Source: Saccostrea echinata (lineage: Eukaryota). From it: 64,000 nucleotides of DNA. The stretch lies in the NCBI RefSeq assembly GCF_033153115.1, contig NW_026889755.1, positions 3,224,001-3,288,000 on the forward strand, read 5' to 3'. The notes beneath the pieces were generated by a model that was given only the letters and a program-made list of their open reading frames with translations, was not told where the DNA came from and searched no databases. Position numbers and translations under genes: made by a program. Positions 5,791-61,165 of this stretch are shown in pieces (the first letter of the stretch is position 1; each line of letters starts with the position of its first letter).

Positions 5791-5928
5791 CATGTGAGAG
5801 AGGCTTGTTTGGCTCAAATTGTTCAGAGAAATGCTCAATAAATTGCCGTACCGCTTATGAATGTTTTCACACAAATGGGTCCTGTGTGTGTTTACCTGGC
5901 TGGACAGGGTCACCGCACTGCAACAAAG
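5791..5928 (+). CDS. Gene A exon: EGF-like repeat (MEGF10/SCARF type)
   Basis: ttcag| ... |gtaatc, 138 nt, phase 1-1; CERGLFGSNCSEKCSINCRTAYECFHTNGSCVCLPGWTGSPHCNK; paralogous to 42667-42804. Confidence 0.93.
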
Positions 5929-6549: not shown

Positions 6550-6678
6550 AATGTGATCCGGGATTTTACGGAGAGAATTGTCAGAAACACTGTAAAGATT
6601 ACTGTGTCAATGCTACATGTAATAGAACTGACGGTGGTTGTTTAGCTGGATATATTCAAGAAAATAAGCCTGAGAAAG
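6550..6678 (+). CDS. Gene A exon: membrane-proximal partial EGF repeat
   Basis: tttag| ... |gtgagt, 129 nt, phase 1-1; ECDPGFYGENCQKHCKDYCVNATCNRTDGGCLAGYIQENKPEK. Confidence 0.93.
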
Positions 6679-8116: not shown

Positions 8117-9518
8117 TTAAGCACAGTTAACACAAGTGATATTTCTAGCTCAATTGTCCAGGCACGCGCTTGTTGAACTGACAGAATAAACGCATTGTCT
8201 AACATTAGATTCTATGGTATTTATATCTATTTGCTAATTATTGTGAGGAAAACCTGTTTCGAGTAAAAGATAATGCATAATTTTTATCCGAGAACAAAGT
8301 TTGCAATTACAGTTTCGATTGACTGCAGATTTATTACACAAAAAAACAATTTTTTGCATGCTCTTTAGTGCCTTTCATATGAAGAACGAACACGTTTTTA
8401 GGGAAGATAATACAAGAAACATTCACTAGGCTTTTAAAAGAAAATTAGATATTTTCTTTAAAGGGAAAATTTTGAAACAGAATCTGAAGAAGGTTTTTAT
8501 CCTCATGTCAAATAGGATTGCAATTTATAGTTGCTTTTTAAAAAAAAAAAATATTATCATTGAGGGAAGGCTGAGGATTGTCTATTTAAAAATAGCTTGA
8601 ATTTACCTTTTCATTAGATTATTATTTCTTTGTGCTTCCATCTAGACGTTTGCATGCGTGCTGGCTATAATATTGAAATCTTTAAATGACTTCTGACCTT
8701 AGTGAAACAAGTACTTAAATTAATATGCAAGTCGGTTATAAGGAAGCAAATTTCGATGTCTCAGTGACTTCATTTTAACCGAATTTTACTGTAAAAGTAA
8801 CAATGTATAGACTCCGATTATTTCTTTCTTTTCAGTCAACTTTTCTCCTTTTGCATTAAAAAAAAATGAAAAGAATTGGCAAGTGTCGCTGATACGAGCT
8901 ACTGAGTTTATAATTTAAAAGTATTGACACTGGAAAAAAAATAGTTTCGATTTTAGGAAGACTGATTTTCCGGCAATGTTACCTTGTAACATTTATATAA
9001 TTTCATCATCAGTTTCAGCTTGGGTTTTATCAGATAACATCTTCTTTTCTAAAGTTTGGATGTCTCCCTAGAATAGAAAATCAATCCATCAAACACTTTG
9101 GCTTTTGTTTAATATCCCTTACCACCTGTACTTTTGTGATGATTTTCCCTTATTTTCATAGACCCTTATTATGAGACTCCTTCTAAAGAGTGATTTAGCA
9201 ATTTTGTCCATTTGTTTTATGTTTACACCCATCCCAAATACAAATCATTCTCTACAAACTTGATGGATTATCAATGACGTAATATTGTTGTCTTATAAAT
9301 TTCGTTGTTTGTTGTTGTTGAAAGGAAATATCTGCACGTTTTGTAATTATGCAAGGACACGAAAAAGTCCTGTTCTGTATCAGTGCATTATTGTGTTATG
9401 AATGTTTTTAATTCTAGGATATAACTCGACCGCATTTTTTTTTATTGAAGTTAATATCACTGATTCCTTCTCATTATGTAAGACTGAGAAAATTGCCAGA
9501 ACATATGTAACAGTCATT

Positions 9519-10256: not shown

Positions 10257-10368
10257 GGGAAGACAGAAAACCATTAGTGTCATATAAGAAAGAATATTAC
10301 ACAGTGAGTGGTATTTTTGGAGCAATGGGTGTTGTTTCGCTTGTCATCATTGCTGTATTAATTATACG
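10257..10368 (+). CDS. Gene A exon: transmembrane helix
   Basis: taaag| ... |gtactt, 112 nt, phase 1-2; GEDRKPLVSYKKEYYTVSGIFGAMGVVSLVIIAVLIIR. Confidence 0.92.
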
Positions 10369-11068: not shown

Positions 11069-11285
11069 TGGAAAGAAAACGTTCAGCATCTGCAGAATGC
11101 CAAAAGATCGGAATATTTCGGCAGAAACGGATAAAGCAGAAGGAGGACATTCAAATGCAAATAAAATTGTACAAAATGACAAAACCTTATATCAGGAATT
11201 GAGTGTGTTTGAAAACAAGAGTGCATATCAGGAACTACATTATGAGAAAAACCCTTATGAGAATCTTGAATTAACTGTTAATTGA
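11069..11285 (+). CDS. Gene A terminal exon: cytoplasmic tail with three YxxL motifs
   Basis: ttcaag| phase 2; GKKTFSICRMPKDRNISAETDKAEGGHSNANKIVQNDKTLYQELSVFENKSAYQELHYEKNPYENLELTVN*; matches ORF 11097-11285. Confidence 0.92.
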
Positions 11286-27449: not shown

Positions 27450-27686
27450 TTGATTTAGCACATGGTAAAACTTCCTATCAGACTCTAAGTGCTCCTTTGG
27501 ATCCACAAGACCCAACTCGGTTTATTTCAAGCAATGCAGTTGATAGAGACCCATCCTCCTGCACACGGAACTATGAAATAGGACGAACCTCCCCACACAC
27601 AAGTGTACTTTGGAGAGTTAACTTGGGTGATATCTACAGTATTTACAGTATCAGGATACTTTTCAAAGACTATGGCTCAGTATACG
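27450..27686 (+). CDS. Gene B exon: first half of the F-type lectin/galactose-binding-like domain
   Basis: ttttaag| ... |gtatat, 237 nt, phase 1-1; DLAHGKTSYQT...SSNAVDRDPSSCTRN...LWRVNLGDIYSIYSIRILFKDYGSVY, which fits the NLA/AVD/WxVDLG pattern of F5/8-type-C/FTP folds. Confidence 0.88.
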
Positions 27687-30155: not shown

Positions 30156-30395
30156 AGAAGCGACAAAGAGGACGATTTGCGGGATTTTCCATTCATATTT
30201 CAAACTCCACCGATAGAGACAATTGGTTTCTTTGTTACAAGGACAAGTCTGGGTTACCCCCCTTGGATTTCAGTACCACATGCATGAAACATGGTCGTTA
30301 CGTCATTTATTACAATGAAAGATTAAAGAACATTACCTATCCTGTTGGTTACCAAACTACAATCATAACAGAGTTATGCGAAGTGATAGTGCATG
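30156..30395 (+). CDS. Gene B exon: second half of the lectin-like domain
   Basis: ttcag| ... |gtaagc, 240 nt, phase 1-1; KRQRGRFAGFSIHISNSTDRDNWFLCYKDKSGLPPLDFSTTCMKHGRYVIYYNERLKNITYPVGYQTTIITELCEVIVHG (GRYV and LCEVxV motifs). Confidence 0.92.
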
Positions 30396-39343: not shown

Positions 39344-39481
39344 GTTGTGCTAAGAAGAGAGTTTATGGTCTTAACTGTGACCTACCCTGCTCTGTGAACT
39401 GTCAAGAACATAGCTGCAACATAGTTAATGGAACATGTCTGGGATGTAAGCCAGGGTGGACAGGCGACAAGTGTGATAAAT
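39344..39481 (+). CDS. Gene B exon: EGF-like repeat 1
   Basis: aaaag| ... |gtatgg, 138 nt, phase 1-1; CAKKRVYGLNCDLPCSVNCQEHSCNIVNGTCLGCKPGWTGDKCDK. Confidence 0.92.
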
Positions 39482-40047: not shown

Positions 40048-40188
40048 TGTGCCCTGTTGGATGGTATGGAGTTGGTTGTCAACACAGATGTGTTGGACAT
40101 TGCCAACACAACGCCTCCTGTCATCATGAGTCAGGCAGTTGTGTAGACGGTTGTGCTACGGGATGGATGGGGCCCTTATGTAACAAAG
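40048..40188 (+). CDS. Gene B exon: EGF-like repeat 2
   Basis: aacag| ... |gttaag, 141 nt; CPVGWYGVGCQHRCVGHCQHNASCHHESGSCVDGCATGWMGPLCNK. Confidence 0.93.
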
Positions 40189-41009: not shown

Positions 41010-41150
41010 AGTGTGAATATGGAACCTATGGCCAAGGTTGTATTCATAAATGTAGTGGAAATTGCTTGAATAGTTCTCACTGCAACAAAACAACAGGCAA
41101 TTGTGACTTGGGTTGTAGTCCTGGGTATATAGGATCTTTCTGTAATAGGA
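41010..41150 (+). CDS. Gene B exon: EGF-like repeat 3
   Basis: tacag| ... |gtaggt, 141 nt; CEYGTYGQGCIHKCSGNCLNSSHCNKTTGNCDLGCSPGYIGSFCNR. Confidence 0.93.
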
Positions 41151-41274: not shown

Positions 41275-41415
41275 TCTGTTCTATTGGAAAGTTTGGAATC
41301 CATTGCAAAGAGACATGTAGTGGTCACTGCTTAAATGACACAAATTGTGATCATGTAAATGGAAGTTGCAACAAGGGTTGTGACAATGGATATACTGGTG
41401 ATGGGTGCATCAAAT
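41275..41415 (+). CDS. Gene B exon: EGF-like repeat 4
   Basis: gacag| ... |gtaaga, 141 nt; CSIGKFGIHCKETCSGHCLNDTNCDHVNGSCNKGCDNGYTGDGCIK. Confidence 0.93.
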
Positions 41416-42666: not shown

Positions 42667-42804
42667 CATGTGAGAGAGGCTTGTTTGGCCCTGATTGTTC
42701 ACAAAAATGCTCAATAAATTGTCACACTCCTAATGAGTGTACAATCACCGATGGGTCCTGTGTGTGTTCTCCTGGCTGGACAGGGTCACCACACTGCAAC
42801 AAAG
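42667..42804 (+). CDS. Gene B exon: EGF-like repeat 5
   Basis: ttcag| ... |gtaatt, 138 nt; CERGLFGPDCSQKCSINCHTPNECTITDGSCVCSPGWTGSPHCNK. Confidence 0.93.
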
Positions 42805-44481: not shown

Positions 44482-44610
44482 AATGTGATGAGGGATTTTA
44501 CGGAGAGAATTGTCACGCACACTGTAGAGATTACTGTATCAATGCTACGTGTAATAGAACTGATGGTAATTGTTTGGTTGGATTCATCAAAGGAAATACT
44601 TTTGAGAAAG
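44482..44610 (+). CDS. Gene B exon: membrane-proximal partial EGF repeat
   Basis: ttcag| ... |gtgagt, 129 nt; ECDEGFYGENCHAHCRDYCINATCNRTDGNCLVGFIKGNTFEK. Confidence 0.93.
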
Positions 44611-47078
44611 GTGAGTTGGTTTTAATGATTATTTGATAAACTTCATTTAATCCTAAAATTTTAAGTGGTTGAAACTTCTTCTCTAGAGACAAAATTTCTT
44701 TAAGGAATAAATGTTTTATCAATTGTTCAATACTGTTTACGTATTTCACTTGGCTGTGTATTCTTTTTAGCGCTTTTGGCGGAAAGTTGCTTGCAATTCA
44801 AACACAATGCTATATGTCTTGCACATATGAACATAAATAAGAACATTAAGAAATGCGCTAAATCAAACCTACACTAACTTGTTCGAAAATCAACTTCAGC
44901 CAATATCGTATACGCTAAATATAATACATTTACAGTATGTGTTTACCATCCGTCTCTATATTTATTCATCCAATCATGAAAAGAGAATTGATATGATATA
45001 AATATATAGGCAAAAGATTCTTGTTGCTTAATGTTTGTATGGGCCGATGTCAGGTATAAATGTATAGGAGTTCACTTCAGACTATAAAATGGTAAGAACT
45101 AAAGGCCTGGGATAGGTTTTAATCTTTACCAAAAATTATCCATTCCGCTCCGGTCGATGACTTTAGGCTATATCTATACACGTATGTAATAATAGTTTTC
45201 TCAAACATTGTTTTAGTCTTAGTCAACGCTCTTAGTAGGTAGAGATAGGAGGAACATTTGGAATGGTCAGCAGATGCAATTTGAGTTCATTACCTCCAAA
45301 TATCATTTGATAATTTTGTGTACTTTTCATTATAATGGTTATGGCAAGTTTAAACTGCCTACTCGATTTCTGGTTACTTAACAACAAACATTCTTGGAAA
45401 TAATAAAATTATCTAAAATTTACAATTTTAAGATGAGACATGAAGGAGTAGTAGCTGACGTCAATATTGAGTTAAACTGTATATACATTATATGACATGT
45501 AATTGTCAATATCTTGACCACAAATAATATATTCTAGCTCAATTATCCAGACAAGCGCTTGTAGGGCTGAAAGAATAAAAGCACAGACATTGTCTTCACA
45601 TTAAATTCTAAGGTAAAGGTATTTATATCCATTACAGCTCTTTATTGCAGGGAAAACCTGTTTCTAATAACAGAGATTGAATTATTCTAATTCAAGAACA
45701 AACCTTGCAATAAAGTTCCGATTGATTGCAGATTAATTAATTACACAAACTATACTATTTACATCCTCTTTATACACAAGCCTCTTCTTCAAAAAATAGA
45801 TTAGATATTTTCTTAATGGGAGAATTTCAAACAGTTAAACTGTGAGATCAATTGCCTTTAAGCAATTTCTTTTTCTTTTTTTTTTTTAGTTTTACTTGAG
45901 ACACATTTAATTTAATTTCTTTAATAAAATTTGTCAACTTTTATGAAGAAAGTAATCATTTTAATTCAAAACTTAATTTCAAAGTTTATGACATTTTAAC
46001 CCTGGGCCGTACGCACTATCTGAGACCTTAAAGGACCGTAATTTTTACAAAAAATTATTAAGTTAAAACAATTTAACCAAAACCAAATTAAAGTATTCTG
46101 ACTTGGATTTCCATAACAAATATTTTGGTATACAATACATATATAACGCCATTCAATTTGACAAAAACTTCATTGAGCACGATCTTTATGGACAAACCCT
46201 CGTATAGATATAAAATAAGATGTAATCAGATATGATGAATAAGGATTTGCTGTAAAATTATTCGACTCAGTGCATGCGTTATTTTTCAATAAGAACGCTT
46301 TGTCCATGGTTTTACTGGGCATCCCTAGTATATACATATATACTTTTAATGGTTATATCATTATTATCTCGTTAATTTTGAACCTTCTAGTGGCGTAAAT
46401 GCAAGTTCTGCGATATCACAAAGTCAATTAAAAATTTGGAACATATGATTTCAAGCAAAATACTGGTTTCAAAAACATGAAATTAATTTAAAATACAGTC
46501 GCTGCATTATGATTATCATGACGCTTTGGAACATACTGACCATCTAAGGAAAAATTCCCACCATCTCATATAAATTATCTAGATCGTAATATGAGTCCAC
46601 TTCACGTTCCAAGATCTGAAGTATTTGATCATTTCATCCAACCTTCATCACAAAAAACTCAAGACGGTGATGTTATCTATTCAGAACATGCTAAATACCT
46701 TAGTCTGAAGAATGTATGTTTTCTTTCTTCTTGTATTTTATAGCTGACGATTTTTATTAATTTTTAATTTCTTTTTATTGAATATTATCGTTGAGGTATC
46801 GCTAAGGATTGTCTATTAAAATAAAGTAGCTTATACATGTATGTATATTTTTACCATATTATTTTTATTCTATGCACTTTATGTTTAGACTTTTGCATTA
46901 GCGTGCTAGTTAGAGTATAAGCAATTTTAGTTGAGTTCTGACCTTCGTGAAACAAGAAAAATATTTCAGGAACTTAAATTATGTAACTCTTGACTTTTGC
47001 ATTGATGGAAACGTGTTTTGAGTGTTTCTTGCTCTATTTTACCAATCTCTGCATTAGTACCTTCTCTTTAAGTGATTA

Positions 47079-48995: not shown

Positions 48996-49728
48996 TAGAA
49001 GTTACAATGTATGGACGCCGTCTTTTCAGTGAGGAAAAAATTAAAAGAATAGGCGGCTGCTTCAGATACAAGTGACTGAGTTTATATTCTAAAAGTGTTG
49101 ACACTGTTCCAAAAAATGTCTCAAGTTTAGGAAGACTAATTTTCCGACAATGTTACCTTCGTAACATTTATGAAATTTCATCATCCATTTCAGCTTGGGA
49201 TTACTGTATCACTCTGAGACTATTTTCCGTTCTAAAGTTAGGATGTATCCCTAGAAGAAATAATCCAATCCATAAAACACTTTGGCTTTTTTTAATCTCT
49301 CTCACCCCCTGTACTTTTGTGCTAACATGGTTTTCCTTATTTTCATAGATCCTTACTATGAGAGTCTTTCTAAAGAGTCAGCAATTTTGTCCATTTTTTT
49401 ATGTTTACATCGTTCGCAAATGAAAATGACTCTCTACAAACTTGATTGATTACCATTGACGTAATGTTTTTGCCTTATAATTAACCTTTGTTTGTTGTTG
49501 TTGAAAGGAAATATCTGCACGTTTCGTAATCATGCCAGTACATGAAAAAGTCCTGTTCAGTATCAGTGCATAATAGTGTTATGAATGTTATTAATTGTAG
49601 GATATTACTCGACCGCGTTTTGTAGAAGTAAATATAACTGATTATTTCTTATTATGTTAAACTGAAAAATACCAGGACATGTGTAACAGTCATTGAAAAG
49701 AATATTTCAAAATATTTTCCATTTTAAG

Positions 49729-49840
49729 GGGAAGACAGAAAACCATTAGAATCATATAAGAAAGAATATTACACAGTGGGTGGCATTTTGGGAGCAATGG
49801 CAGTCGTTGCGATTGCGATAATTGCTGTATTATTTATACG
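49729..49840 (+). CDS. Gene B exon: transmembrane helix
   Basis: ttaag| ... |gtactt, 112 nt, phase 1-2; GEDRKPLESYKKEYYTVGGILGAMAVVAIAIIAVLFIR. Confidence 0.92.
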
Positions 49841-50238
49841 GTACTTATTTACACTTTTATTCTTACATTTAGCTTTTAATTTATTTAGTCAATTTAATTT
49901 AAAAGATGCTTACTGAAAAGTAAAATTATCCTACTCCATTAATAAGATTTCAAATTTACAATAAATTTTGACATTACAGCAAGACAAAATATCGATCAGC
50001 ATCAGTAATGAGTGAATATTTACAATAGGTAGCTTGCATTCTTGATTAAAAAAAAAGGGGGGGTGGAAAGATGTAAAATTCTCGAATTGGACGTAAACAA
50101 CATACAATCAGTCATAAATGAATATGTTAATAAAATAAAAAGAAACACATGTAATTATTTATAAACTGACGGCAATTGTGAAATTATGCAGGCAAAAGAA
50201 TTTCTTCTCATTACACTAGTAGTTACGCAATCATTTAT

Positions 50239-50293
<55 letters not shown>

Positions 50294-50296
50294 AAG

Positions 50297-50513
50297 TGGA
50301 AGGAAAACGTTCAGCATCTGCAGAATGCCAAAAGATCGGAATATTTCCACAGAAATCGATGGAGAAGAAGGAGGACATTCAGATGCAAATAAAATTGTAC
50401 AAAAAGACACAATCTTGTATCAGGAATTGCATGTGATTGAAAACGAGAGTGCATATCAGGAACTACATTATGAGAAAAACCCTTATGAGAATCTTGAATC
50501 AACTGTTAATTAA
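50297..50513 (+). CDS. Gene B terminal exon: cytoplasmic tail with three YxxL motifs
   Basis: T-tract-gaag| phase 2; GRKTFSICRMPKDRNISTEIDGEEGGHSDANKIVQKDTILYQELHVIENESAYQELHYEKNPYENLESTVN*. The ten exons total 1634 nt and stay in frame throughout. Confidence 0.92.
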
Positions 50514-56298: not shown

Positions 56299-58885
56299 TG
56301 CTTCAATAAATGTACAACTCTACTAATATCTTTATCAGCTGATTGTTCTTTTTGCCAATCAATGTTAAAAAATTCACATGAATCATGACATGAAGTATCA
56401 GGTAAGGAAGAAATGTTCGACTCACTCTGTGCCTCATCTTGTACAATACCAGTACTTACAGTCATACATGAAGCTGATGTGAGGTTGTCGGGTAGGAATA
56501 TATTCTCAAAGTAGGGACAGTTTTCTCTCTCTGTAGTATGTGCATTACAGATGGACTGGACCACATCAGGAATAACTTCTGTTTCTAAGGGTCTTCTGGA
56601 TAAGCCATCTGCATCTGCATTGTTAATACCCTTCCGGTAACGGATTGAAAAATGAAAGTTGCTCAAAGCAGCCAGCCATCGATGACCTGTGGCATCAAGT
56701 TTAGCAGTGGTTAGGATGTAGGTGAGGGGGTTGTTATCAGTGATGACCTCAAAGTAATTTCCAAACAGGTAGTCATAGAATTTTTCTGTTACGGCCCATT
56801 TCAAAGATAAGAATTCCAATTATGCGCAGAATAGTTTCTCTCACTGTTCTTCAAACCTCTGCTGGCATAAGCTATCACACGCTTCTCACCATTCTGCTGC
56901 TGGTAAAGTACTGCTCCCAAACCATTCCTTGATGCATCTGTATGGAGGATGAAAGGCTTGTCAAAGTCAGCATAGGCAAGGATTGGTGGTGATGTTAGTT
57001 TCCGTTATATTTCCTCAAAGGCCTGAGACTCCTGATCTCCCCATCTCCATGGTGGTGGTTTGACTTTTTCCTTAGTGTTCGTTGAATGGCCCTTCAGAAG
57101 ATCATTAAGGGGTTTAATTATTTTAGAATAATCTTTAACATACCTCCTGTAATAACCTGCGAATCCTAGAAAGGTACGAAGTGTGTTGATATTGTGCGGG
57201 ACTGGCCATGTAGAAATAGACTTGATCTTCTCTGGGTCTGTAGCTACACCTGCTTTACTTACCACATGTCCTAAGTAGGTAACACTCTCTTTGAAAAACT
57301 CACACTTCTTGGCCTTAAGCTTAAGATGATGTTTCCCAAGTCTCTGAAACACAGATGTTAGTCGGTCCAAGTGTTCGTCAAATGTCTGGGAAAATATGAG
57401 TATGTCATCGAGAAAAACAAGACAGTCTCTCAAGTTCAACTCACCCATACATCGTTCCATAATCCTCTGAAAAGTTGCAGGTGCATTTGTCAATCCAAAC
57501 CCCATTCTGTTGCACTCATAGTGACCAACACCGCTGACCGAAAAGGCTGTCTTCTCTTTATCCCTCTCTTCTATCTCAACTTGCCAGTAAGAACTGGTTA
57601 AATCTAGTTTGGTGAAGAAATTTGACCCAACCAATCTGTCGATAGTGTCATCGATGCGAGGAAGGTTGTATGCGTCCTTGATGGTTCTGGAGTTGAGTTT
57701 CCTGTAGTCTATGCAGAAACGTAAACTACCTCTTTCTTTCTGACCAATACTATGTTGGAGGAATATGGGCTCTGGGATGGTCTAATAGCTCCAACATCCA
57801 GCATCTCCTTGAGGTGTTCTCGTACTTCTGCATACATTCCTGAGTGGAATCCGTCTATATGGTTCTTTGAATGGTGTGTTGTCGGTAAGCTTAATTTCAT
57901 GTTTTAAAATATCAGTCTTACCTATATCGGTTGGTCCATCTGAAAATAAATGTGTCCAACAGGAGAGAAACTTCTTAGCTTCACTTACTTGTTTAGAAGT
58001 TAAGTTCTCCTCTGATATCTTGATGTCCAATTCCTGCAGAGACTTTTCTGACTTCTTAATACCTTGTTCCGATGATTCAGGATTCCAAGAGTCCACCATC
58101 TTTACACCACTGACTGAACATAAAAGTGATTTTGGGGGTATATGTACAATAGAGGCTGAAATATTGCAAACCCTGACAGGAATACTAGTCGTACGTTTAC
58201 CCTGGGTAAGGGGAATAACTCTAGGACAAACAATGAGACCTCCTGATAATGAAGTATTTGTTTGCTCAGTCAAAGCTGATACAATACCATGGTTATTTCT
58301 TACCAGACCTCTGATTACTTTTGTCTCATTTGGTAACACTTGAATGGTATACTTGTTAGTTGTCTTTACTGGTGTCTCTTCATTCATACTGTCAAATGCT
58401 AACTTCCATTCTGTTGGAACATCTTCTGAATCAGTGGAATTTTGGTTATAAGCATTCCTGTAAAAACGAATGAAATTAGTTCCAATGAGCATGGGCACTT
58501 GCTTTGAATAATTTGTTTGGGGAACTACCAGAACAGGAATAGTATATGTAGAATTACCAAAGCAAGGTACACAAATGTCAATTTCAGTATAGCCACTATA
58601 TGGCAAAGCACTGCCATTAGCACTTTGAACATTAAGTTCAAATTCTGAAAGGTCAAATAACTCAGGCCTGGGGTTAAAATTTTTGAAAAATTCTTCTGAA
58701 ATACAGGTTATCATGGATCCCGAGTCAATGAGTGCTTTGGTCTTTATGCCATTGACAATAATATCAGATTCATTGGATTCTCCAACTAACCTGTACAAAA
58801 GACTGGCTGAATTTTTAGAATAATTAGGGCTTTTTTTAAATGCACCTCCAGTCTGCCCCGCAACAGGAGATGAAACTAGTTTAAA
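56299..58885 (-). pseudogene. pol: Gypsy pol (aspartic protease, RT, RNase H), frameshifted and truncated before integrase
   Basis: ALIDSGS (protease); MGFGLTNAPATFQR and FLDDILIF (RT); LHTDAS, VITDNNPL and NADADGLSR (RNase H). Frame breaks near 57840, 57730, 57005 and 56820. Confidence 0.92.
58827..58885 (-). promoter_or_regulatory. -1 programmed ribosomal frameshift signal (gag-pol)
   Basis: T TTA AAC immediately before the gag TAG. The -1 frame is open and continuous with the pol ORF at 58798. Stem CATCTCC/GGAGGTG begins 6 nt downstream. Confidence 0.8.
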
Positions 58886-60177
58886 GTACTACCTGTACCA
58901 AACCCATTCATGTTACCAGACTGTTGAGTTCTGCCAGTAAGCTGCCTCTGTTGCCATGGTTGCTGAGTCTGTTGCTGAATCTGGTGCTGTTGTTGATTTT
59001 GCTGTTGGTAGGGATGCTGACTCTGCTGCCCCCTCTGTTGCTGGTACTGCTTGTTTGGAGGTTGCTGAAGCAGATTCTGAGATTGAAAATACATTCCTCT
59101 GCCCCTGTTGGCAAATCTCTTTCTGCCCTGGAAACTTCCTCTGTAGTTATTATTGATGGAGGAATTTGTCTGAAAAGAATCTGTATGATTAGAACCAAAT
59201 GTTTGGGTTTGATGATTTGCATTGGAACTTTGCTCAATTTTACCCATTCTGCTATCAAGTTTCTTCATCTGAGAAAGTAATTCTGTAAGTTGTTTTTGCA
59301 TATTTTGCAGTTCATAATTTTGTATAGTCAATAAATCTACATTATTTGACATAGCCACACTTGATTTTGGAACTGAATTTACAGATTTCAAACTAGTTTC
59401 CTCTTGTTCAATCTGTCTTATTTCTCTAAGAAGGGAGTGAAACTCTTTCACAGTTTCGTACTTGTGCCTTGTTGCATTTCTTAATTGTGTGCTTCTTAGA
59501 CCTGACCAAAACTTTGATCTCAACATTGCATCTTTTGCACTAGCATCAACATGTCCTAACTTAACAGCTTTTGTAATGCACTGCTCTAATCTAGAGCCAT
59601 ATGAAACAATTGTGTCACCTTCTCTCTGGTGGTCGCTGTAAAAATTCTGCATGATGTTCTCTGGTGTTGACACATTACCGAAAAAGTCTTCGAGCTTCGA
59701 GAGTATTGTGTCAGTAGTCGCACCTTCGCCGAGAGGAATAAGCATTTCACGGGCTTGACCTTTTAAGGAACTACGAACAAGCTGTAATAAATCATTCTCA
59801 GTTAACTGATTTTTCAGACATCTAACCTCATATGCCCAAACATCAAAACTGACTTCACCCTTTTGATCAGTACCACTAAAAAATGGGATTTTAACTCTAC
59901 TGCTATTTGGCATCAGAGCATGATTAGATAACATTGAAGAGGTAAATATTGGGGATGCAGATGGCAAGTTTGGAGCAACCTTGGGTTTAGCACCATCAAA
60001 TTCAAATTCTGGTAATTTTCCTTGTGGTTTAAACTGACTTACTGGTGTTTCTTTTTCTAAAGCAGTTTTATTTACCAACAAGTCATATTCCTCTTTGGGT
60101 ATGATTCTATATTTGTTCTCAGAATTGATTTCATTAATCAATTGTTGTAATTCATCAACAGATTCGCTGCTTGCCAT
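58876..60177 (-). CDS. gag: Gypsy gag, PNMA/Ma-like capsid with a Gln-rich C-terminus
   Basis: Intact ORF with a probable start at MASSES; FSG..GEVSFDVWAYEV, RSSLKGQA and MLRSKFWSGLR motifs; no CCHC knuckle. Confidence 0.9.
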   Translation of the reverse strand: MASSESVDELQQLINEINSENKYRIIPKEEYDLLVNKTALEKETPVSQFKPQGKLPEFEFDGAKPKVAPNLPSASPIFTSSMLSNHALMPNSSRVKIPFFSGTDQKGEVSFDVWAYEVRCLKNQLTENDLLQLVRSSLKGQAREMLIPLGEGATTDTILSKLEDFFGNVSTPENIMQNFYSDHQREGDTIVSYGSRLEQCITKAVKLGHVDASAKDAMLRSKFWSGLRSTQLRNATRHKYETVKEFHSLLREIRQIEQEETSLKSVNSVPKSSVAMSNNVDLLTIQNYELQNMQKQLTELLSQMKKLDSRMGKIEQSSNANHQTQTFGSNHTDSFQTNSSINNNYRGSFQGRKRFANRGRGMYFQSQNLLQQPPNKQYQQQRGQQSQHPYQQQNQQQHQIQQQTQQPWQQRQLTGRTQQSGNMNGFGTGSTLN

Positions 60178-61165
60178 TATCGCAAAGTTTAGCGCACAAA
60201 ATAAAAACAATGTGTATCTAATTATGACACGCATGCACACCACACTCAGGTCCACTGCAGCTGAAACAGTCAATGTAATAATAAATTGTTAGCAGTCTTT
60301 CTTGTCCATAAGTTGGTTCACGTCGCTGTGGAAAAGTTAGTATTCGCTGCAAACAAGATATTGTGACATGCAACATGCAAAATAGGACACGGGGAGGGGG
60401 GATTCAAAGATACTACACAAAACACATTGACAGTCAACAAAACATAGACAATTGTAGACAACACAATGCACATCAAAACATACATAAAGCACAGTACACA
60501 TACATTTGGCAGTCTAGAGTCTGATCGATTACCGTTCAAGAATCTCAAAACACGTTTTTCGTTTACCACCAAAACAAGAAAAAATAACATGGAGCTCGAT
60601 CCCGATCAAAATCTACACTCGCACTTCTTACACACAGCCGGCATCTCTCAAACAACATCAATACATATAACATAAATCACAAGAACACATAAAACAAACA
60701 AATGACACAATGCATAGAAAATATAATTACAAGTGCGCACAAATATTTCTCTTTAAATTTAATTCAAAGAAATCAGTATTTAGAGTTGTAGCTTCAGGTT
60801 CCGGATCAATTCACACGCAGTGGGAAAATCTACCGGAACACTAGTCACGTTGCACGGATCATTGAGCATCCGAGAGACACAGTTCTCGATTCCATAGAAT
60901 GATTGGAATGTCAAATATAAGTTAGCTAGCTAGAAAATGTATTTAAACACGTGCATATTGAAAATGGGCAGACTTACGGCCTAGGCGGATCCATGGGGAA
61001 GTAATAGACATTGGTCACATTCACAGGCGTTGTGATCAATCCTCTCGTCCCTCAGTGGATTACTGGACCCTGGTCTTCATCCATTAGAAAAACTTGAAGT
61101 TCACGATATATCATCGTGGAAATCAATGGAATACACATGTAGAAATCACTTCAAGTTGGAAATGA

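Follow-up and report, generated by a model that had tools for sequence, protein, structure and literature searches.

The window, the whole 64,000-nucleotide stretch of Saccostrea echinata DNA that was analysed, contains two tandem genes, A and B, each encoding a signal peptide, an F-type-lectin fold, six EGF repeats, one transmembrane (TM) segment and a short tail, with tyrosine motifs closing the last exon. Gene A is also complete, its 5' exons lying upstream of the window; within the window are its last two EGF exons (5791-5928 and 6550-6678), its TM exon (10257-10368) and its motif-bearing last exon (11069-11285), all on the plus strand. Gene B, on the same strand, starts with a predicted signal-peptide exon (21730-21820) that has a phase-1 donor and look-alike exons upstream of three paralogues. 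This is followed by a lectin-like domain in two exons (27450-27686 and 30156-30395), six EGF-like exons (39344-39481, 40048-40188, 41010-41150, 41275-41415, 42667-42804 and 44482-44610), the TM exon (49729-49840), identified from its splice sites and an RNA-type contig, and the last coding exon (50297-50513), which encodes a 72-residue cytoplasmic tail plus stop and is defined by an AG acceptor, an open frame and an RNA-type contig. The exons of gene B have AG/GT ends throughout, translation from the first lectin exon onwards runs for 544 residues without a stop, and the tail exon is in frame with the TM exon via canonical splice sites. The predicted structure of the N-terminal domain has pLDDT above 90 across the domain, and Foldseek matched it at E of about 1e-9 to 1k12, 3cqo and bacterial fucose-binding modules, that is, to the F-type lectin/CBM32 beta-sandwich. 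F-type lectins bind fucose through a His...Arg-x-Asp...Arg motif; by eye, in a weak alignment, SCTR of gene B aligned to SCTH of FBP32. On the minus strand at about 56300-60300 there are open frames, with pol in several pieces, which by eye resemble gag and pol of an LTR retrotransposon.

The RNA-type material comprised three contig sets from one sample, whose RNA nature is a guess and in which missing cover of EGF exons carries no weight. Contig X1 record 1 (depth 4.7) matches 49721-49840 and then 50304-50455 with exactly 7 letters between, the number required by a splice from 49840 to 50297, which supports the TM-to-tail junction. A putative 49-nt exon between them (about 49980-50028) was rejected, since including it would interrupt the frame, gene A has nothing corresponding and RNA cover is lacking. 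A search with the tail profile among longer proteins gave one match, and a search among representatives gave six, one with a family-like tail (P0122) and four that are unrelated repeats. The sole database protein matching the profile is 'protein draper-like [Saccostrea echinata]', a fused A+B model without the TM segment. The NCBI model P0001, which fuses A and B and omits the TM exon, was therefore not accepted as gene structure, and was folded for the lectin of gene B only. Public models in this cluster (P0001, P0128 and P0126) fuse neighbours and skip TM exons, so annotation-based domain counts are unreliable here.

Positions 50409-50513 translate to TILYQELHVIENESAYQELHYEKNPYENLESTVN followed by a stop. 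The tails of both genes read YQEL-x8-YQEL-x6-YENL, exactly as the preliminary description had it, spacings and Y-2 residues included. In gene B the motif tyrosines lie at 50418, 50454 and 50484. Motif 1 (50418-50429) is YQEL with Ile at Y-2, motif 2 (50454-50465) is YQEL with Ser at Y-2 and a 36-nt duplicate of motif 1, and motif 3 (50484-50495) is YENL, which is also a YxN. A fourth tyrosine at 50469 (HYEKN), not counted before, is not conserved. Gene A carries TLYQEL-x8-YQEL-x6-YENL with tyrosines at 11190, 11226 and 11256. Each neighbouring YxxL pair in both tails fits the spacing of an ITAM, as had been proposed, and gene B has the ITAM pattern YxxL/I-x6-8(12)-YxxL/I (as quoted in the available portion of PMC9546547) in the cytoplasmic tail of a TM protein. 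An origin of the motifs by internal duplication also finds support, as TATCAGGAA repeats 36 nt apart in A and in B and the two 36-nt units are identical at 19-20 of 36 bases in the two genes. The identity of about 50 nt reported between A and B is a run of 54 nt (50446-50499); it was discarded as separate evidence, being no longer than chance allows (P 0.07 if 19 mismatches fall at random, 0.19 if 15 events do). The tail exon as a whole is unusually similar between A and B, with a pS of 0.057, the value for nine other exons being 0.27 (Fisher p 5e-4). Among 200,000 shuffles of the tail, the triple motif arose 18 times and a double motif 1,583 times. The six frames of the AT-rich window hold 41 stop-free double motifs, indicating that the pattern needs coding context; the triple occurs only twice, in A and B.

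The genome yielded 11 tail matches among 12 candidates, and the survey of conservation called for in the preliminary description came out in favour of the motifs, with the three tyrosines kept in 11 of 11 copies, some of which are not independent because contigs C6 and C27 share near-identical copies (98% identity) at a constant offset. Eight copies have the strict triple, two end in YQNF and one has a stop ahead of the third motif. The locus L013:1501-1690, which has a stop between motifs 2 and 3 and another at the start of the tail exon, is a broken or truncated copy. Near-identical cluster genes occupy C6 at about 0.5-3.6 Mb and C27 at about 11.1-13.2 Mb, offset by about 10.1 Mb, and these are likely two haplotypes or a large duplication. 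C27 yielded no near-identical copy of the tail of A or of B, possibly reflecting presence/absence variation. Across the 45 pairs of the 10 intact copies, the tyrosine columns show no non-synonymous and 33 synonymous pairwise differences, and pN/pS is 0.28 in the motif codons versus 0.65 in the rest of the tail. These sequence comparisons support the view that the tyrosine motifs are under selection.

A search among longer proteins returned 89 matches, mostly with phosphatase domains, one of them 88% identical to B and encoded on the same contig. The corresponding gene C (G000:C6:3358041-3418547), 84 kb beyond B and outside the window, was rebuilt from DNA; the model P0128, which fuses unrelated pieces to C and omits the TM exon, was rejected as its structure. 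Exons 1-8 of gene C are collinear with the ectodomain exons of B and are followed by its own TM exon and a tandem tyrosine-phosphatase tail with two predicted phosphatase domains. Its frame of 1,112 amino acids, which contains KNRY, WPD and HCSAGIGR, needs a GA donor at one phosphatase-domain intron to stay open. Among 30 paralogues this donor is GT in 21, GG in 5, GA in 3 and GC in 1; the nine copies without GT cluster as a single sequence group, in which AAGT is kept at +3 to +6 and the next exon is intact. Since the next exon is intact in these copies and no conserved acceptor that would restore the frame of C from a nearby GT was found, the GA donor is likely used in splicing. L090:1436-1515 (G000:C6:3399436-3399515), together with loci L102-L131, makes a candidate conserved GA/GG-AG intron. 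Three options for a juxtamembrane exon of C each broke the frame, and a search for its signal exon found none.

The lectin exons of genes B and C are 94% and 98% identical in DNA, and 145 of 157 lectin residues are shared. Synonymous divergence drops to 0.062 in the lectin versus 0.237 in the EGF exons (Fisher p 8e-5), a dip seen for neither A-B nor A-C, and the introns flanking the lectin exons are about 65% identical or less. The similarity is thus limited to two exons that are separated by 2.5 kb in B and by 16 kb in C. The two genes group as sisters (support 99/96). They are therefore linked genes with similar ligand domains, divergent tails and a signature of conversion, as in paired receptors, and the paired-receptor idea would fit B with C instead of A with B. 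Gene B, with a tail like that of A and a lectin like that of C, is likely a mosaic produced by gene conversion. Because near-identical lectin heads are joined to an ITAM-type tail in one gene and a phosphatase tail in the other, B and C would form an on/off pair. We therefore read gene B as an activating ITAM-type lectin-EGF receptor for which the neighbouring gene C would be the off-switch, at a probability of roughly 60%. Of the parts of this reading, ITAM-type activation by the family is quite probable, and an on/off pairing maintained over time is less likely than not.

Of 207 proteins examined, 98 were left out because they lacked a single full lectin or a TM segment or had a different kind of tail; together with those of A, B and C, the set comprised 112 lectins, 50 with ITAM-type tails (spacing 6-12, T allowed at the last +3) and 62 with phosphatase tails. 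Across oyster species, lectins with ITAM tails and lectins with phosphatase tails are intermingled. On a quick tree the tail label changes 27 times, against 36.5 for shuffled labels, so the labels are still clustered, and at least 12 of the changes are forced by well-supported branches. Among the matches listed, a phosphatase-tailed protein is the best match for 17 of the 50 ITAM-tailed lectins, for instance at 92.5% (P0008/P0131) and 90.4% (P0023/P0146); in both examples the two partners are on contigs recorded with identical length. An AU test (p 2e-64) was given no weight because its 39 rows were chosen after viewing the larger tree. The lectins of P0018/P0136 and of P0021/P0144 form pairs that join S. 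cucullata with S. echinata and one tail class with the other, possibly as trans-species variants; for P0021/P0136, within S. echinata, the EGF part is closer than the lectin.

The strongest rival, which falls somewhat short of even odds, accepts gene B as an ITAM-type receptor and regards its lectin match to C as a side effect of general exon shuffling within a tandem cluster, with no functional pair. Excess lectin identity is indeed found in every class of near pair, the lectin being more similar than the EGF part in 10 of 14 ITAM-ITAM, 11 of 15 phosphatase-phosphatase and 21 of 24 ITAM-phosphatase pairs, which were chosen by lectin identity and exclude P0026. ITAM and phosphatase genes are interspersed on C6 and C27, and the tails of A and B have been homogenised as well. 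A phosphatase twin was present for one of the three ITAM genes examined; for the other two, A and L008, none was found in this assembly, where the best other lectin exon is 80% identical, bar a 98% copy that is likely allelic. Such shuffling sits less easily with the restriction of the B-C similarity to the two lectin exons between differing introns and with the recurrence of comparable close pairs in other oyster species.

A second rival holds that the tyrosines serve chiefly as YxxPhi sorting signals or as docking sites for single SH2 domains (Src-family, Grb2) in a scavenger-type receptor, with no tandem-SH2 ITAM. It bears on the tails of the wider family, for which 120 of 572 relatives were listed; a TM segment was called in 82 of these, the tail was 30-130 residues long in 72, and 56 were non-redundant. 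Many of these entries come from automatic annotation, and P0001 and P0128 are erroneous models. Among the matches listed, paired YxxL/I motifs, which speak for the ITAM-type reading, occur in 37 of 56 tails at spacing 6-12 (shuffled mean 0.6) and in 28 of 56 at spacing 6-8 (shuffled mean 0.4), contrasts with shuffles that take no account of the shared ancestry of family members. Docking or sorting would suit the YxN motif, which among these matches is found in 33 of 56 tails against 13.6 in shuffles, and also the distal +3 residue, which is L or I in only 33 of 47, T in 6 and at times F (with Asn at +2 in 23), and the full range of spacings (5-25). Among the same matches, however, the modal spacing is 8 (25 of 47, with 33 of 47 at 6-8), an acidic residue stands at Y-4 in 26 of 47 and YQEL is near-fixed, and sorting signals do not need a fixed motif pair. 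We consider this rival unlikely. NPxY is absent from A and B and occurs in 1 of the 56 family tails among the matches listed (shuffled mean 0.5). The family consensus among them is a pair, YQEL-x8-Y[QE]NL, to which motifs 2 and 3 of gene B correspond (YQEL...Y[QE]NL); outside the group of this genome the tight triple was found in 1 of 72 tails (P0073, S. cucullata) and looser triples in 10. The module is therefore family-wide and the third motif a local duplication.

Gene B might instead mostly yield a secreted or degraded transcript, its tail being rarely translated. The 5' end of contig X1 record 1 joins an extra 75-nt exon with an in-frame stop (45538-45612, plus strand; the contig end matches 45575-45604 and the acceptor is inferred) to the TM exon of gene B, and inclusion of this exon would yield a secreted or decay-targeted form. 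The junction is present in the sole near-identical (99%) RNA-type contig for gene B, gene A has a homologous segment at 8149-8216 with a stop at the same codon, and between the tails of A and B pN (0.092) exceeds pS (0.057). Against this, the junction comes from a single contig at that low depth from one sample, the frame that skips the exon is the open one, the motif codons are unchanged, and in a more distant RNA-type contig (X3, record 2) the EGF, TM and tail exons follow one another with nothing between. A transcript of this kind as the main product thus appears rather improbable. The stop-bearing exon of B has no ATG; a Met within the TM exon of both genes could, speculatively, start a short membrane-anchored ITAM peptide.

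The preliminary description had itself proposed that A and B form a paired system in which the Y-2 residue of motif 1, ITSM-like in A and ITIM in B, selects Syk or SHP recruitment. Its assignment of motifs holds in part. ILYQEL and SAYQEL fit the loose ITIM pattern [S/I/V/L]xYxx[I/V/L], which is matched by two motifs in B and one in A; TLYQEL ends in L and fails the strict ITSM consensus, TxYxx[V/I]. A single base (ACC/ATC) accounts for the A/B difference at Y-2, one of 13 amino-acid replacements between the two tails. Across the 11 copies this position is Ala in 6, Thr in 3, Ile in 1 and Val in 1, and Y-2 is ITIM-compatible in 2 of 11 copies at motif 1 and in 7 of 11 at motif 2 (L016 read as Lys by eye at an alignment gap). 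At YQEL-like motifs among the matches listed, I/V/L at Y-2 is depleted (3 of 68, background 17%, p 0.002) and Ser is enriched (20 of 68, p 3e-6), and a strict ITSM occurs in 0 of 56 family tails. A subgroup (P0002, P0016, P0023, P0064 and P0101) carries a membrane-proximal LxYxxI (LQYATI, LHYTSI, LQYISI) before the distal tyrosines, and these would be stronger ITIM candidates than any motif in A or B. Paired receptors have similar ligand domains and divergent tails. A and B share 46 of 78 residues in lectin exon 1 and differ most in the lectin; their homogenised tails and divergent lectins therefore indicate one output with two heads, not a Siglec-type pair. ITSM switching also requires vertebrate SAP/EAT-2 adaptors, and the SH2 domains of SHP2 prefer small or hydrophobic residues after the tyrosine. 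Even granting the loose ITIM matches, the family-wide Ser at Y-2 and the SHP2-like gene in the genome, a switch at a position with four states in 11 copies, between genes that share an identical distal motif pair, is very unlikely. The tyrosine motif is thus real and selected, the Y-2 switch is rejected, and the stronger candidate for pairing, gene C, lies outside the window.

Under the preferred reading of B as activator and C as its off-switch, a ligand, probably a glycan, would cluster B, and a Src-family kinase would phosphorylate its YxxL tyrosines. The tandem SH2 domains of Syk or Shark could then bind either adjacent motif pair, with the third motif adding avidity, and the distal YENL may also bind Grb2-type SH2 domains; engulfment or immune signalling would ensue. 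Gene C would engage the same ligand and thereby bring its phosphatase into the same cluster, and gene A would have the same output as B via a different head. We infer phosphorylation by a Src-family kinase and binding of Syk/Shark from the parallel with Draper, MEGF10 and oyster CgIgR, and propose the glycan ligand and the opposition by C; B likely signals via Syk and C would oppose it. SH2 exons resembling those of Syk, SHP2 and SHIP are present in the oyster genome (3 of 49 SH2 matches compared with PDB). For one SH2 exon the best PDB matches are Syk/ZAP-70; it is a single exon and fits Syk or Shark alike.

Many oyster genes labelled 'draper-like' or 'MEGF10-like' (572 matches) carry no assigned signalling, and the conserved ITAM-type tail supplies a testable output for them. 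The lectin match of ITAM- and phosphatase-tailed members suggests how this signalling is restrained. More broadly, it is conceivable, at odds we put well below even, that oysters have a design not described before, in which many lectin-EGF receptors exist as an activator with an ITAM tail and an inhibitor with a receptor phosphatase. Gene conversion confined to exons would time and again bring the ligand domains of the two back into agreement, which would make an evolvable on/off glycan sensor, and the snail schistosome-resistance clusters, which share this architecture, would operate alike. According to the available sections of the snail papers, the same architecture lies under Biomphalaria parasite-resistance peaks, where the short tails are unexplained, so the Syk-versus-phosphatase model is testable there and in oyster disease breeding.

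In the main texts of the open-access literature we found no description of this tail, nor of oyster ITAM/phosphatase pairs. In the sections available, the clustered Biomphalaria LG5R 'scavenger class F-like' receptors 1B and 1C (PMC13712769) and the MEGF/GBD receptors and RPTPs of B. sudanica SudRes1 (PMC12297450) likewise have a signal peptide, a galactose-binding/fucolectin domain, EGF repeats and one TM segment, and end in a short tail or tandem phosphatase domains. By architecture alone, gene B corresponds to LG5R 1B, and gene C to LG5R 1C and the SudRes1 RPTPs. Both snail clusters lie in regions tied to parasite resistance; their short tails are described there as without signatures, the word ITAM has 0 occurrences in the two main texts, and, unlike for oyster B and C, the available sections report no matched pairs or conversion (PMC13712769, PMC12297450).

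Invertebrate ITAMs, those of oysters included, are already known, and the motif alone is ordinary. In the available parts of the sources, oyster CgIgR is an ITAM-bearing receptor that co-precipitates Syk (PMC6994640), and overlapping ITAMs and ITIMs were already noted in Hydractinia Alr (PMC9546547). Both resemble A and B in their ITAM tails; unlike B, they have Ig ectodomains and no phosphatase twin reported in those parts (PMC6994640, PMC9546547). Database labels of the oyster family are 'draper-like' and 'MEGF10', and CED-1/Draper/MEGF10 are, like B, EGF-repeat single-pass receptors with YxxL/ITAM motifs. Draper and MEGF10 signal via Src-ITAM-Shark/Syk, and Draper-II recruits Corkscrew through an ITIM (PMC8092387, sections available). 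Gene B differs in having a short tail without NPxY, no EMI domain by Pfam, with the F-type lectin fold at its N-terminus instead, and a large lineage-specific expansion, and its candidate brake is a separate receptor phosphatase, unlike the ITIM of Draper-II. With neither EMI nor NPxY, B would work in a Draper-like manner yet not be a member of the CED-1/Draper/MEGF10 group. Siglec-5/14 and Siglec-11/16 are, like B and C, linked genes with a ligand domain homogenised by gene conversion and differing cytoplasmic outputs, as far as the available text of PMC13358205 goes. In the Siglec pairs the activating member borrows DAP12 and the inhibitory member recruits SHP by an ITIM (PMC13358205), whereas in B and C the ITAM and the predicted phosphatase are built into the receptors themselves.
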